NCBI GenBank assembly: GCA_045660785.1
Contig: JAZREL010000076.1
Location: forward strand, 594 to 64,593
Reading direction: 5' to 3'
Length of the DNA stretch: 64,000 nt
Source of the DNA: Eubacteriales bacterium
Lineage (GTDB): Bacteria; Bacillota; Clostridia; Oscillospirales; CAG-272
The notes beneath the pieces are model-generated. The model worked only from the letters and a program-made list of their open reading frames with translations, searched no databases and was not told where the DNA came from. The position numbers and the translations under genes were made by a program. This document shows positions 3,738 to 60,276 of the stretch, piece by piece (positions within the stretch are counted from its first letter, which is position 1; each line of letters starts with the position of its first letter).

Positions 3738-3776
3738 AAAAATAGCTGATTTTATTAAAAAATCAGCTATTTTCTT
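3738..3776. terminator. Bidirectional terminator between the convergent SGNH hydrolase gene and spoIVA
   Basis: A 12-bp perfect stem atagctgatttt/aaaatcagctat, flanked by an A-run and a T-run. Confidence 0.75.
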
Positions 3777-3860
3777 ATTATTTATATATGAACGAATTAA
3801 CATATGTGCATATAATTATACAAGTTTTGGCAAAATTTGACACAAAATTTTGCTCTTAAA

Positions 3861-21424: not shown

Positions 21425-21653
21425 GAAATTTGTGCAAAATGCACAATACAAGCGGTGCTTGTAAATGAATTGCGCAAACGCATGAATTGAAGCAGAGCTT
21501 CATGAATTGTCACAAAGCGACATGAATTGCGCCTTTGGTGCATAAATTGAGGCAATACCGCATTGAAGCATCATATGGCGTAGCCAATTCATAATGTGTT
21601 AACGTCAATTTATTAAAATACAGTTTTCAATTTATGTGATTTATCACAATTCA
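21425..21653. repeat. Micro-hairpin array, family 1, locus A (about 11 units; orientation flips at ~21570)
   Basis: CATGAATTG or CATAAATTG recurs at 21481, 21501, 21521 and 21541, an exact 20-nt period. CAATTCAT or CAATTTAT (the reverse complement) recurs at 21585, 21606, 21628 and 21647. The spacers are short palindromes closed by TG...CA. Confidence 0.85.
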
Positions 21654-21654
21654 G

Positions 21655-21686
21655 TAAAAAAGAGCCCACCCCGTGAGCTCTTTTTA
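21655..21686. terminator. Terminator after ruvB (bidirectional shape)
   Basis: agagc-cac/gtg-gctct hairpin flanked by A6 and T5 runs. Confidence 0.65.
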
Positions 21687-21690
21687 CTAT

Positions 21691-22740
21691 TTATCCCTCA
21701 ATTTTCATTTGAGTTGCGCCGCCTTGAAAGGGAAGGCCAAGGTGGTCGTAAGCCAAGCGCGTTACACATCTGCCCTTAGGGGTGCGGCTAAGGAAGCCGA
21801 TTTGCATAAGATACGGCTCGTAAACGTCCTCAATTGTGATTGCTTCCTCGCCGATTGTTGCCGCCAAGGTTTCAAGTCCGACAGGGCCGCCGCCGTAAAA
21901 TTTGATAATGGTTTCAAGAATTTTTCTGTCAATGTTGTCAAGTCCAAGGTCGTCAATTTCAAGTGCCGAAAGTGCCATTTTTGCAATTTCAAGCGTAATT
22001 TTGCCGTCGCCCTTTACCTGCGCGTAGTCGCGTACACGCTTAAGGAGACGGTTTGCAATACGAGGGGTTCCGCGTGAGCGTGAGGCAATTTCCTTTGCGC
22101 CCTCGCTGTCAATTCCAACCTCTAAAAGAGAAGCACTGCGCGTAATAATGGTTGCAAGCTCGTCCGCGTTATAAAGCTCCAAGCGCAAAAGCACGCCAAA
22201 GCGGTCGCGAAGCGGAGTGGTGAGCTGTCCTGCACGTGTCGTTGCACCCACTAAGGTGAAGCGAGGAAGCGGCACACGTACGCTTCTTGCCGCAGGACCC
22301 TTGCCTATAATAATATCAAGCACGTAGTCCTCCATTGCAGGGTAAAGAATTTCCTCAATAGAGCGTGAAAGACGGTGAATTTCGTCGATAAATAAAACGT
22401 CCCCGGGGGCAAGATTGGTTAAAATCGCCGCCAAATCACCCGGCTTTTCAATTGCAGGGCCCGACGTTACTCTGAAATTAACGCCCATTTCGTTTGCAAT
22501 AATGCCCGAAAGCGTTGTCTTACCAAGACCGGGAGGGCCGTAGAGAAGCACGTGGTCAAGCGCGTCGCCTCTGCCCTTAGCCGCGTCAATATAAACCTTA
22601 AGCATTTCCTTGACCTTTTCCTGACCGATGTAGTCCTCAAATGCCTTTGGGCGCAAGCTGACCTCAACCTCGGTGTCCTCGCCCGTCATTTCGGTTGAAA
22701 CTATTCGGTTTTCAAAGTCAAATTCTGTTTCCTCAATCAT
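21691..22740 (-). CDS. ruvB: Holliday junction branch migration helicase RuvB
   Basis: 349 aa. GPPGLGKTT Walker A, DEIHR Walker B, and RuvB-specific C-terminal domains. Confidence 0.97.
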
Positions 22741-27547: not shown

Positions 27548-27689
27548 GCACCTTGCGGTGCGTGAATTGATGCGACGCATCATAAATTGCAACTCTGTTG
27601 CATGAATTGTTTCTGTGAAACATGAATTGTGCTCCGCACATAAATTGCAACCTTGTTGCATGAATTGTCCTTTGGACATTTTATAATTG
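27548..27689 (+). repeat. Micro-hairpin array, family 1, locus B (7 units, all the same orientation)
   Basis: (C/G)(A/G)T(G/A)AATTG recurs at 27561, 27581, 27601, 27621, 27639 and 27659. Every spacer is a 3-4-bp palindrome with a 3-nt loop, closed by TG...CA. Confidence 0.9.
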
Positions 27690-27700
27690 TAGGAGAAAAA

Positions 27701-32754: not shown

Positions 32755-35025
32755 ATGGAAATGTGTACCAGATGCAAAAAAAGACCGGCAACGGTTTATA
32801 TTATGAAGCTCGAAAACAACGTGCAAAAGCAAGAGGGACTTTGCCTCGTTTGCGCTAAGGAGCTCGGCATTAAGCCCGTCAACGATATGATGACAAAGAT
32901 GGGCATTACCGAGGAGGAGCTTGAAAATATGGAAAAGATGTTCGCTGATATGCTTCCCGTTGCAAATGACGGCGAGGACGGCGACGAGGACTCTCCCACA
33001 ATTGATTTTTCCAAAATAATGAAAAATATGGGAATGGGCGCAGGTGAACAAAAGGACGCAAAGGATAAGGACAAGGGCAAGAAAAAGGACAACCGCAAGC
33101 ACCTTTCCACCTTCTGCACAAACCTCAATCAGCGCGCACTAAACGGCAAGCTTGACAGAATTGTAGGTAGATCACGTGAGCTTGAAAGAGTAATTCAAAT
33201 TCTAAGCCGCCGCCAAAAGAACAACCCCTGCTTAATAGGTGAGCCGGGCGTTGGTAAAACCGCAATTGCCGAGGCACTCGCACAAAGAATTGTCGAGGGC
33301 AACGTGCCACATAAGCTTAAAAAATGCGAAATATACTTGGTTGACTTAACCGCACTTGTTGCAGGCACTCAGTTCAGAGGTCAGTTTGAGGCAAGAATTA
33401 ACGGACTTCTTAAGGAGGTTAAGGAGGCAGGCAATATTATTCTCGTTATCGACGAAATCCACAATATTGTCGGCACAGGCAACTCCGCGGGCAGTATGAA
33501 CGCCGCAAATATTTTAAAGCCCGCACTTTCACGCGGCGAAATTCAGGTTATCGGCGCAACAACCTTGAAGGAATACCGCAAATATATTGAGAAGGATGCC
33601 GCACTTGAGCGCCGCTTCCAGCCCGTTAAGGTTGAGGAGCCGTGTATTGACGAGTGTATCGAAATGATAAAGGGCATCAGGCACTACTACGAAATTTATC
33701 ACGGCGTTAAAATCTCCGATGAAATGGCAAAAAGCGCAGTTGTAATGAGTGAGCGCTATATCACCGACAGATTTTTGCCCGACAAGGCAATCGACTTAAT
33801 CGACGAGGCGTGCTCGCACATTGTTTTGCACGCGCCACACATAAACGAGCGCCACAGAGTTATCGAGCGCTTGGCAGAGGTTGACACAAAAACCGAGGCG
33901 CTGAATGCAAAAATTGCAGAGGGCGGCAAGGAGCCAAGCGAAAACGAATATAAGCAGCTTGCCGAGCTTAAGGCGGAGCGTTCAATGCTTCTTATAGACA
34001 AGGAAAAGCTTGACAAGGAATGTGAAAATACCGTTATGACCAAGCAGGACCTTGCAGGCGTTATCGAAATTTGGACGGGCATCCCCGCAAGCAATATTTC
34101 CGAGGTTGAATTTGAAATGCTTGCTGCGCTTGAGGACAAGATAAAATCTCGTATTGTCGGTCAGGACGAGGCGGTAAAATCGCTCTCTGCGGCAATCAGA
34201 AGAAACCGTGCAGGCGTCAGCATTAAAAAACGTCCCGCATCCTTCATTTTCGCAGGTCCGACGGGCGTTGGTAAAACCGAGCTTGTTAAAACGCTCGCAA
34301 ATGAGCTTTTCAATACTCCCGATTCGCTTATTCGCCTTGATATGACAGAGTTTATGGAGAAGCACTCCGTGTCTAAAATCATCGGCTCTCCTCCCGGCTA
34401 CGTTGGCTACGACGAGGCAGGACAGCTCACCGAAAAGATAAGACGCTCACCGTACTCCGTTGTGCTCTTCGACGAAATAGAGAAGGCGCATCCCGACGTA
34501 TTAAACATTCTTCTTCAAATTCTTGACGAGGGTAAAATTTCCGACTCTCAGGGAAGAACGATAAATTTTGAAAACACGGTTATTATAATGACGACTAACG
34601 CGGGCGCAACCTTAACCTCATCCCAGGCGGGCTTCGGCTCAAGCTCACACGAGGTTGCCAAGGATAAAACAGAGAAGGCGCTTTCCTCGTTCCTTCGTCC
34701 CGAGTTTATCAACCGTATCGCCGAAATTATCACCTTCCGCTCACTTGAAGAAAGCGACTTTGTAAAGATTGCCAAGATTATGCTTAGCGATATGCAAACA
34801 GCACTTGGTGAAAGAAGCATCCGCTTCACCTTTACTGACGAGGTGTGCGAGTTTATTGCAAAGGAATCCTTCAGCAAAAAATTCGGTGCAAGAAATATGC
34901 GCAGATATATTCAAACTCAAATCGAGGATAAGCTTGCCCACGCAATTATCTTTGAGATAAAGGGCAACATCATCGGCGCAAGCGTTGACGTAAAGGACGG
35001 GGCACTCGTTGTTGACTGCATTTAG
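32755..35025 (+). CDS. Clp/Hsp100 two-AAA+ ATPase with an N-terminal CxxC...CxxC zinc ribbon (ClpE-like)
   Basis: 756 aa. CTRCKK...CLVCAKELG at the N-terminus, two Walker A boxes ([18 protein letters not shown]), and no Clp_N repeat domain. Confidence 0.88.
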
Positions 35026-35120
35026 CACGTCAACACGTGAATGAATTGCAACCATAAGGTTTCATGAAGCAGCACTATGTAATGAAATTACAATTCATGG
35101 TTTGCAAGCATCAATTCATT
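35026..35120. repeat. Micro-hairpin array, family 1, locus C (shorter, partly degenerate, orientation flips)
   Basis: AATGAATTG at 35040, degenerate CATGAAGC at 35063 and AATGAAATT at 35081, then CAATTCATG at 35091 and CAATTCATT at 35112. The cacgt-caac-acgtg and TGcaacc-ataa-ggtttCA hairpins are visible. Confidence 0.7.
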
Positions 35121-35128
35121 AAAAATTT

Positions 35129-35170
35129 GAGCAAGGACAGGGGAATTTAACCCTTTTCCTTGCTCTTTTT
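35129..35170 (+). terminator. Intrinsic terminator after the ClpE-like gene and array C
   Basis: A long gagcaagga...tccttgctc hairpin plus a T5 run. Confidence 0.8.
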
Positions 35171-35244
35171 ACTTACGACAACGGGCGGGCTTCTCGTTTT
35201 GCCTCAAATTTTTAAAATTTTTTTACTTTAGTTTGATAAAGTAC

Positions 35245-35273: not shown

Positions 35274-35328
35274 AATCGTATATTATTTTTACAACTAAAT
35301 TTTACTATGATACTTTATGAGGTTAAAA

Positions 35329-38182: not shown

Positions 38183-38228
38183 AAAAATGCAAAAAAATGC
38201 GACCCTGTGTCGCATTTTTGCATTTTTT
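38183..38228 (+). terminator. Intrinsic terminator after gdhA
   Basis: A long nested hairpin (atgcaaaaa-atgcgac / gtcgcat-ttttgcat) plus a T-run. Confidence 0.8.
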
Positions 38229-48882: not shown

Positions 48883-48965
48883 GCATCATTTAGCGCAAAT
48901 ATGCTCCGTTTTCCTTGCTACCGTACGCCAAACGCAAGAAAAACAATTCTAAACTACTATAAAAC

Positions 48966-48994
48966 AAAAAACGGACACCCTGTGTCCTTTTTTT
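48966..48994. terminator. Bidirectional terminator
   Basis: ggacac/gtgtcc stem flanked by A- and T-runs. Confidence 0.75.
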
Positions 48995-49003
48995 GCATTT
49001 TAG

Positions 49004-53611: not shown

Positions 53612-53645
53612 AAAAAGGGCTCTTGAAAGCCCTTTTCTTTTTTTA
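53612..53645 (+). terminator. Intrinsic terminator
   Basis: gggct/agccc hairpin plus a T-run. Confidence 0.75.
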
Positions 53646-53747
53646 TATACATATGAACGAATTCACATATGAACAAAACATAATATATAAAACAGCGAGT
53701 AAAAAGCAAAAATACGGGAATAATAACCAAAAACCAAGGAGAGAACA

Positions 53748-59256: not shown

Positions 59257-60276
59257 TTATTCGTAAAAATCTGGAATTTCAACCGCGGAATATCTTGACC
59301 AACCAAGCGCAGGGCGGAAGCCCCAAATTGAATCTCTTGCTTGTCTGTTTGACTTTTCGCTCTTGTCAAAAAGCGTGAGGTTGCTTTCCCATTCAAGGAT
59401 TATCGGCAGGTCGTTTTTCATTGACGAGTCGAGCAAGCGATAGTTAATCTTGTCGCCGTTTTGAACCTCGGAATACAAGCAAACGCGAATTCCCCAACAA
59501 AGGTCAAATGCAGCCGCCTCAACCACCTTGATGCTTCTTGGAATTGCAATAGTGTAGTAGTAGCTTTCGTTTTTATATTGGCTGTTTCCAAACGCCACGC
59601 CAAAATCAGTAAACGCGTTTGTCTTAATTCCAACAACGCTCTTGCCTTGGTATTCGCGCGGCATGTAAACAATCTTCGTTGCATCAACGGGTCTTACAAA
59701 GTCAACACAGTAAAGCTCACCGTTTTCCTCTACGTAAACAAAGCCGTCAGCGTCCGTAATTGTGGTAGGCGCAGGTGGCTCCTCGTTTCCTTCGTCACCG
59801 TCGCCCTCGCCGCCGTTGTCACCGCTATTATCGCCACTGTTGTCACCGCCCTCGTTGCCTGAGCCACCTTGGTTGCCGCTTCCGCCTTGGTCGTCGTCCT
59901 CATTGTCTGAGCCACCTTGGTTCTCGTTTCCACCTTGGTCGTCGTCCTCATTGCCTGAGCCGCCTTGGTTCTCGTTTCCGCCTTGGTCGTCGTCCTCATT
60001 GCCTGAGCCACCTTGGTTCTCGTTTCCGCCTTGGTCGCTGTCCTCATTACCCGAGCCACCCTCGGTGTCAGTGTCTGTTTCGGTGTCGGTAACATCGCCT
60101 GCACCCGTGTCGGTGTCCTTATTTGTGTCGTCCGTGTCGATGTTTGTGTCTGTTTCGTCCGTTTGTGTGCCTTCGCCCGTGTCAATGTAAATGCCACCGC
60201 CCTCGCAAGCGGAGAAGCAAAGCGCCAAAAGAACGGTCAGTGCCAAAAGAATACACAAAAATATATTTCTTTTCAT
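59257..60276 (-). CDS. Lipoprotein with an acidic repeat linker and a C-terminal BspA-type leucine-rich-repeat-like domain
   Basis: Lipobox FSACEGG, a T/D-rich stretch, (GGSGNEDDDQGGNENQ)n repeats, then an IPRSIKVVEAAAF-type LRR segment. The start ATG 60276 lies behind a GAGGA RBS. Confidence 0.75.
   Translation of the reverse strand: MKRNIFLCILLALTVLLALCFSACEGGGIYIDTGEGTQTDETDTNIDTDDTNKDTDTGAGDVTDTETDTDTEGGSGNEDSDQGGNENQGGSGNEDDDQGGNENQGGSGNEDDDQGGNENQGGSDNEDDDQGGSGNQGGSGNEGGDNSGDNSGDNGGEGDGDEGNEEPPAPTTITDADGFVYVEENGELYCVDFVRPVDATKIVYMPREYQGKSVVGIKTNAFTDFGVAFGNSQYKNESYYYTIAIPRSIKVVEAAAFDLCWGIRVCLYSEVQNGDKINYRLLDSSMKNDLPIILEWESNLTLFDKSEKSNRQARDSIWGFRPALGWSRYSAVEIPDFYE
59885..60076. repeat. 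In-frame 48-bp tandem repeat, about 4 copies
   Basis: ccttggtcg(t/c)(c/t)gtcctcatt starts at 59885, 59933, 59981 and 60029, an exact 48-nt period. It encodes the 16-aa G/N/E/D/Q repeat. Confidence 0.9.

Follow-up and report, generated by a model that had tools for sequence, protein, structure and literature searches.

A short hairpin array downstream of a ClpE-like gene as a probable truncated copy of a dispersed structured repeat of gut and rumen Clostridia

The ClpE-like gene in the 64-kb stretch of DNA analysed here (the window) is followed by a short array of linkers and hairpins, array C (35026-35120), which we read with moderate confidence as a truncated and passively co-transcribed copy of a dispersed structured repeat of gut and rumen Clostridia. 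On sequence comparison, array C and two further arrays of the window, loci A and B, are pieces of one discrete, conserved element of ~160 nt that is related to the Gut-1 motif. The copy behind clpE is by itself a minor, decaying member, which helps to show that the arrays in the window are element insertions and not gene-specific regulators. No clpE-specific function of array C is indicated, and its interest lies mainly in the family.

Anatomy of the array behind clpE

The ClpE-like gene (32755-35025, + strand; ORF list, translation and Pfam) encodes a Clp ATPase of 756 aa and ends in a TAG stop codon at 35023-35025. Pfam recognises AAA_2, AAA, AAA_lid_9 and ClpB_D2-small in this ORF, and the protein combines an N-terminal CxxC...CxxC zinc-finger motif with two AAA+ modules, so that the name "ClpE-like", given in a preliminary description of this DNA, is a fair one.

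Array C is read on the + strand throughout. The stop codon is followed by a leading hairpin of 5 bp, hp0 (CACGT-CAAC-ACGTG, in RNA CACGU-CAAC-ACGUG; 35026-35039), recognised from the sequence, its folds and comparison with other elements; a hairpin directly before the first linker is a feature of most family members. The first linker, AATGAATTG (35040-35048), has exactly the canonical 5'-terminal form with which the family consensus begins. Next comes hairpin h1, (G)CAACC-AUAA-GGUUU(C) (35049-35062), which by sequence and fold has one mismatch; read with its flanks as TGCAACC-ATAA-GGTTTCA it spans 35047-35064, the single mismatch being C/T, and a GCAAC-type h1 is also present in five other family loci (L021, L048, L053, L101 and L112). 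Two degenerate forward linkers follow, CATGAAgca (35063-35071) and ATGAAaTta (35082-35090), each matching the linker at 6/9 positions, and the second of them abuts the first reverse linker. The latter, CAATTCATG (35091-35099), is exact and opens the match of covariance model R1 (described below) at 35091-35120. A 12-nt spacer, GTTTGCAAGCAT (35100-35111), separates it from the last reverse linker, CAATTCATT (35112-35120), which has exactly the canonical 3'-terminal form and pairs with 35040-35048. Both this order of hairpin, linkers, h1 and reverse linkers and the head-to-head (forward-then-reverse) layout of locus A had been described before, and the sequence and its linker order bear them out.

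Exact ATGAATTG / CAATTCAT words stand at 35041 (+), 35091 (-) and 35112 (-), in addition to the two 6/9 linkers, and linker starts are spaced by 23, 18-19, 9-10 and 21 nt; the 9-10-nt step is the place where a degenerate third forward linker adjoins the first reverse linker. Array C thereby carries the conserved linker CATRAATTG at the ~20-nt period that characterises loci A and B. It also has the marks of the full-length element: it opens with a leading hairpin, its outermost linkers have the terminal forms AATGAATTG and CAATTCATT, and its forward linkers stand before the reverse ones.

The first linker is the exact 9-bp complement of the last, and the two are paired in the minimum-free-energy fold, the fold z-score of the array being modest (-1.8). 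The unit hairpins that can fold are h1 (35049-35062) and the leading hairpin, while the other two inter-linker stretches form none. A TTGCAA-centred palindrome had been pointed out between the reverse linkers; the sequence is there, but it is loopless and cannot form a hairpin, so that this spacer is a degenerate unit and no true one. The idea that the units are eroding is borne out for the inner linkers, which are degenerate, but not for the terminal linkers, which are exact. The long-range helix that is typical of the family (see below) has only an interrupted candidate here, GCAACC with GGUUUGC: it is possible, judging from the sequence, that the GGUUUGC of the spacer pairs with the GCAACC of h1 as a remnant of that helix.

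An intrinsic terminator lies downstream of the array (35129-35170, + strand). It consists of a 37-nt stem-loop (35129-35165) followed by the T-run TTTTT (35166-35170), and its fold confirms the strong terminator that had been proposed, a GC-rich stem-loop with a T-run 3' of the gene; a simple terminator scan overlooked it because the stem has an interior loop. Array C follows the stop codon and precedes the only strong terminator, a placement that supports a position in the 3' UTR, as previously suggested. The site is presumably transcribed, the fold is a predicted one, and array C appears to have no role specific to clpE. A search of sequencing runs found none that contains the window, the share of its words being at most 0.07. 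The terminator behind locus A has ends similar to those found here (GAGC...GCTCTTTTTACT), so that the terminator of array C may have arrived with the repeat module and may be a part of it. The terminator regions at 21656-21693 and 35121-35173 have common ends, namely an A-run, a GAGC...GCTC stem base and TTTTTACT.

Further downstream, proS starts at 35317 behind its own promoter. A palindrome, TACTTTA-gtttga-TAAAGTA (35224-35243), lies just upstream of the proS -35 box and is kept in two relatives (L200 and L201), while the remaining spacer is not kept; the palindrome is a candidate operator because it is conserved while the rest of the spacer is not.

Loci A and B and other repeats of the window

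Locus A (21464-21655, + strand) is a full-length family member with five forward and four reverse linkers, identified with covariance model R2, ORFs and Pfam. Its neighbours are ruvB and a surface-protein gene; two hairpins (21430-21464) come before it, and a bidirectional terminator (21661-21690) after it. Locus B (27548-27667, + strand; same evidence) is a half array with a leading hairpin and six forward linkers, and fills the 153-nt gap between a SAM-methyltransferase gene and ecfA (27548-27700).

Three other repeats were seen in the window. Two terminator-like hairpins (38184-38226 and 48965-49001) have the same loop, CCCTGTG, and the same flanks, CAAAAAA...TTTTTGCATTTT, on different stems, and may form a second small repeat family. 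An AT-rich motif, CATATGAACGAATTNACATATG, is common to the intergenic stretches 3767-3820 and 53632-53685 (76% identity over 54 nt) and may be a common operator. A 48-nt tandem repeat at 59794-60101 (4.4 copies, 91% identity) is probably a repetitive coding segment.

Membership of array C in the family

The exact word ATGAATTG occurs 13 times on both strands of the window, five times in locus A, three times in locus B, three times in array C and twice elsewhere. For CATRAATTG, 12 occurrences were observed against 2.1 expected, and 12 was reached in 0/100 shuffles. A Poisson estimate from the two background matches puts the chance that some 95-nt stretch of the window has three exact octamers at ~3e-4; three exact octamers within 95 nt are thus far beyond chance. 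Tandem Repeats Finder, run on the window, detected locus A weakly and did not detect array C.

Two covariance models were used. For model R1 the only training sequences were the nine forward units in loci A and B, whereas model R2 (163 positions, 41 pairs) was built from 25 full elements of other genomes, without window sequence. With R1, array C has one match of 21.2 bits (35091-35120, E 0.04) and another of 12.9 bits (35036-35048). Of the other sequence not used in training, the reverse half of locus A reaches 26.5 and 16.9 bits, and elsewhere in the window, away from A, B and C, no score exceeds 11 bits. With R2, locus A scores 73.3 bits on the + strand and 62.2 bits on the - strand, locus B 54 bits, and array C 21.6 and 19.9 bits, in an alignment that covers only the 3' (reverse-linker) half with 89/163 model positions deleted. 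The next match in the window has 14.5 bits, the maximum in 95 kb of unrelated loci is 15.5 bits and that in 26 kb of syntenic relatives 13.9 bits; canonical family members score 100-174 bits. The E-values of array C are ~0.03-0.06 over the window, with rough calibration.

With both models array C (~20-22 bits) thus marginally outranks all background, by a small margin, where loci A and B score 54-73 bits. The preliminary description had assigned array C to the family of loci A and B and had named its score under a model trained on those two loci, set against background, as the test of that assignment. The assignment stands by these scores, the test itself (21.2 bits, the rest at or below 11) having been passed marginally. 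That array C is a fragmentary member of the hairpin-array family is therefore supported, but weakly.

Architecture of the full element

A search of species-representative genomes with a three-linker pattern, from which loci L001-L119 were fetched, yielded more than 119 family stretches. Nearly all are in metagenome-assembled genomes (MAGs) of uncultured Clostridia from animal guts (gut and rumen), and carriers include Christensenellales, Oscillospiraceae, Acutalibacteraceae and Ca. Scatosoma. In the full element of ~160 nt, a centre separates four forward CAUGAAUUG linkers from four reverse CAAUUCAUG linkers, '++++----' being the commonest layout, and the forward linker word of the family is (C)AUGAAUUG. 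The oriented consensus runs from a leading hairpin through AATGAATTG, three CATGAATTG, the centre CATTAAAGGCAATT and three CAATTCATG to a final CAATTCATT. Short forms with few units are common, and for this reason small size alone is no sign of age.

Every pair of linkers encloses a short hairpin of free sequence, with a period of ~20 nt. These hairpins are 87% paired, and 29/36 pairs show compensatory changes; 0/500 shuffles equalled this, and slid controls were 25-44% paired. A long-range helix joins the first linker and the 5' arm of h1 to the centre, with 95.5% of positions paired and five covarying pairs. Since the 5' arm of h1 can also pair locally, two alternative structures are possible. 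The helix corresponds to columns 3-13 with 100-110 of alignment A2 (e.g. L021, L048, L054 and L005), and its covariants include AAUUGCC/GGCAAUU, AAUUGCAAC/GUUGCAAUU and AAUUAAAUCC/GGAUUUAAUU. Nested pairing between forward and reverse linkers is 95% complementary, yet covariation is absent from it and AAAUCAUG variants are uncompensated; the association of forward G-to-A with reverse C-to-U variants is not significant (p = 0.12).

In all units of L001-L119, the forward and reverse halves consist of the same kind of unit in opposite orientation, with unrelated stems. When the linker is read as ATGAATTG, the loops are TNC in 81/176 triloops and TNNC in 53/105 tetraloops (134/281 together), against three GNA and no GNNA loops.

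In at least 10 loci a TATAAT box, often with the TG extension of an extended -10, closely precedes the leading hairpin, and terminator-like hairpins bracket many elements. Element sequence was also found in contigs of gut and bovine metatranscriptomes (L063 1784-2028 in run X25, 2033-2153 in X27 and X29), and one 245-nt metatranscriptome contig is identical to the junction of the element with its downstream PF05635 gene. These contigs are weak evidence of transcription, because they are unstranded and DNA carry-over is possible.

Dispersal and lineage specificity

The gene order clpE-proS-gdh was found in the nearest four relatives that were available for comparison, whose ClpE C-termini have 89, 84, 73 and 70% amino-acid identity. 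An array is absent from clpE-proS in all four (L200-L203), where the stop codon leads directly to the terminator and then to the conserved proS promoter. Array C is therefore lineage-specific at this site, and the description of it as an "older" copy finds no support in the four empty sites or in the small size of the array, short forms being common in the family. On these comparisons array C would have arisen by gain here or by loss elsewhere, the relatives compared being 70-89% identical in ClpE and not sister strains. One of the relatives, L215, is syntenic over the whole methyltransferase-gdh stretch and is the one that covers the site of array B; its methyltransferase-ecfA gap is 15 nt and holds a ribosome-binding site only (L215 2103-2121), so that array B too appears to be a lineage-specific insertion. 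No array was found anywhere in 26 kb of the syntenic relatives. A metagenome scan with the ClpE C-terminus returned relatives of at most 65% identity, none of them with an array downstream, and exact searches with the ClpE and ProS proteins of the window matched no contig.

Copies of 200-280 bp with 86-96% identity occur on different contigs of one MAG and across MAGs. Three copies of 280 bp (L002 610-890, L035 7696-7976 and L011 5100-5376), on different contigs of one MAG and 90-96% identical, each consist of a long hairpin, an array and a second long hairpin, and compensatory changes distinguish their flanking hairpins; their ends show no target-site duplication. Across the loci, no transposase gene, target-site duplication or defined insertion boundary was seen.

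The intergenic contexts of the arrays are co-directional in 27 cases, convergent in 12 and divergent in 13, and half arrays are sense to flanking genes in 10 cases and antisense in 11. Random contexts and orientations, multiple copies and absence from relatives are the habits of a dispersed repeat and not of a gene-specific regulator. In L052 (691-3859), four half arrays ~1 kb apart, all antisense to genes, separate small hypothetical genes upstream of cotJC-like and cotJB-like genes. A plasmid search for the element gave no match and 2.9 million viral contigs contained 10 element stretches; the element is therefore not mainly phage- or plasmid-borne.

Origin and activity of the array

In the reading that we prefer, a copy of the element would have entered the present lineage, or survived only there, between the clpE stop codon and the terminator. 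Array C would have kept the leading hairpin, the first linker, h1 and the last two reverse linkers, its inner linkers having decayed or been deleted. It would be co-transcribed passively as the clpE 3' UTR, and the terminal linkers would probably form a 9-bp helix that closes the module around the remaining hairpins, just upstream of the terminator. A local effect on the stability or termination of the clpE mRNA is possible. What, then, does the family do? Covariation in the hairpins and the long-range helix, upstream promoters, a fixed polarity relative to the downstream gene and the precedent of Gut-1 all point to RNA, and our best guess is a structured RNA whose repeated linker words are offered to a partner, either a protein or a complementary linker.

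Alternatively, the family might act as DNA, as a REP/REPIN- or MITE-like mobile element whose units are read in single-stranded DNA by an enzyme acting in trans, array C being a dead fragment and the transcripts by-products. We consider this doubtful, though several features would suit it. Unit polarity is fixed in both halves, and the TNC/TNNC loops of the ATGAATTG strand mean that the other strand reads CAATTCATG with C-GNA-G mini-hairpins, e.g. GCGAAGC; mini-hairpins of this type are very stable in DNA. Non-Watson-Crick stem positions favour the CAATTCATG strand by 20 to 9, while G.U versus A.C counts in the assigned RNA orientation (27 versus 17) leave the matter undecided. The inverted-repeat layout, the 90-96% identity of copies, presence or absence among relatives and random orientation are as expected of a mobile element, but neither its target-site duplication nor its transposase gene was seen in the loci. 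Moreover, the stems differ entirely between units, so that nothing but linker and shape would be left for a protein to read, whereas REP stems are conserved. The full element also has a fixed polarity, set by -10 boxes, a co-oriented downstream gene and terminators, and where the order rlmD - element - PF05635 gene is syntenic the hairpins are kept by compensatory changes.

It is also possible, but unlikely, that array C is a working module of the clpE 3' UTR, which protects or marks the 3' end of the mRNA or docks the RNA of locus A or of other arrays through its 9-nt linkers; clpE would then be tied to ecfA (locus B) in a linker-based RNA-RNA regulon. Forward and reverse linkers are indeed perfect 9-nt complements on separate transcription units of the same genome (A and C have both kinds, B only the forward kind), and array C lies within a transcription unit, upstream of its terminator, with exact terminal linkers retained where inner ones decayed. 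Such a role is hard to reconcile with a site that is empty in four syntenic relatives, with the equal lack of array B in L215, and with arrays that are random in orientation and context; nor does the nested linker pairing show covariation, its AAAUCAUG variants being uncompensated.

Still less probable, and in our view very unlikely, is that the linkers are double-stranded DNA sites for a regulator or nucleoid protein, set two helical turns apart in the manner of iterons or transposon ends, with incidental hairpins. The 20-21-bp period, the 4+4 inverted sites and a 9-bp word strongly conserved across species would be accounted for, but compensatory changes in 29/36 hairpin pairs, the long-range helix and the bias in loop types would be left unexplained. 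Finally, a chance resemblance of an AT-rich 3' UTR with linker-like words, for which the covariance-model E-values of just 0.03-0.06 and the fold z-score of -1.8 might speak, is highly improbable given three exact 8-mers, two of them 21 nt apart, AATGAATTG and CAATTCATT in the correct order, a leading hairpin and trailing terminator like those of locus A, and an R2 score unmatched elsewhere in the 64-kb window and in 121 kb of control sequence.

Association with PF05635 genes

Ten full-length genes of ~118 aa in the fetched loci (L020, L022, L054, L063, L066, L068, L072, L086, L108 and L111; e.g. L066 1696-2308 and L063 1596-2135) match PF05635, the 23S rRNA intervening sequence protein, and TIGR02436, a four-helix-bundle protein. 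None of the 10 is more than a few tens of bases away from an array. Eight loci have a complete element ahead of the gene, on the same strand in 8/8; in L066 the forward and reverse arms enclose the ORF, and in L086 direct repeats of the 5' end of the element flank it. The 64-kb window contains no PF05635 gene.

It is tempting, if speculative, to regard the arrays, and Gut-1 with them, as the ORF-less form of a mobile element of gut Clostridia whose full form bears a PF05635 gene after or between the linker arms. If so, rRNA intervening sequences would have free-living relatives in these arrays, which colonise intergenic DNA and UTRs, and the clpE copy would be an insertion fossil. The terminal linkers that it retains would then mark the part that is recognised or processed, for example as a stem that RNase III cleaves or to which the four-helix protein binds. 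Natural minimal copies such as array C show what persists, namely the complementary linkers at the two ends, h1 and the terminator that follows.

Comparison with known systems

At gathering score, an Rfam search of the window gives tRNA only. At E<=10, loci A and C give noise only, a Gut-1 match being absent on either, and a pooled search of six loci was empty. Searches of the literature by linker word and by topic returned nothing on the family beyond Gut-1. CRISPR arrays, the repeat RNAs of type III toxin-antitoxin systems and CtsR/CIRCE operators were considered and set aside, since their period, conservation pattern or sequence does not fit.

The REP/BIME and REPIN sequences of proteobacteria are alike in being short extragenic hairpins with a conserved flanking word, in direct and inverted clusters, multi-copy, frequently placed directly behind stop codons, and strain-variable. 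REP elements are biased to 3' ends and have conserved stems. In the hairpin-array family, by contrast, stems are free, only the linker is conserved and contexts are random, and the REP/REPIN/MITE hallmarks of a target-site duplication, conserved terminal inverted repeats and a transposase or RAYT-like gene were not found in the loci examined. The CsrB/RsmZ sponge RNAs, which bind proteins, similarly repeat a short motif on a hairpin scaffold within one small RNA, a mode of action that may apply to the arrays too, but the CsrB motif GGA is in the loops, whereas the linkers of the array family lie between the hairpins and come in two complementary forms.

The 23S rRNA intervening sequence of Coxiella burnetii has been described as a selfish element (PMC4990558): RNase III excises its RNA, and it bears an S23p-family ORF. 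Unlike rRNA intervening sequences, the arrays are not in rRNA, and their arms are interrupted by hairpins instead of forming a single long stem; unlike the ORF-bearing ones, most array copies, including all three in the window, are without an ORF.

The closest known relative is Gut-1 (RF01706), an orphan motif reported from human gut sequences (Weinberg et al. 2010, Genome Biol 11:R31, PMC2864571) and modelled as three hairpins with GUGAAAU between them. Like the hairpin-array family, it comes from gut metagenomes and combines hairpins of free sequence with a conserved purine-rich linker; the linker word differs, being GUGAAAU or GUGAUAU in Gut-1 and AUGAAUUG in the hairpin-array family. The best-scoring family member, the canonical element at L034 5488-5695, reaches 24.8 bits (E 0.006) with the Gut-1 model, which makes Gut-1 the one Rfam family with a meaningful match below threshold, and no tested member, those of the window included, reaches the gathering score of 50 bits. 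On these scores, the family is not a member of RF01706, though related to it. In the seed loci of Gut-1 (supplement 95, PMC2864571), the sequence past the end of the model contains a centre that complements the first linker and the arm of its hairpin (UUAUAUUCGCC ... GGCGAAUAUAA), and then four reverse linkers, AAUAUCAC, which gives the same full architecture as that of the hairpin-array family. RF01706 therefore appears, from these seed sequences, to model just the 5' three-hairpin half of a larger element.

The family is abundant in uncultured gut and rumen Clostridia and is represented in Rfam only by the distant, half-length Gut-1 model, an orphan since 2010. What the present comparison adds is the complete layout of the element, a second "dialect" of the linker and a candidate partner in the PF05635 protein. 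Because the Gut-1 seed loci continue into the centre and the reverse linkers, the hairpin-array family and Gut-1 can be seen as one architecture written in different linker words.
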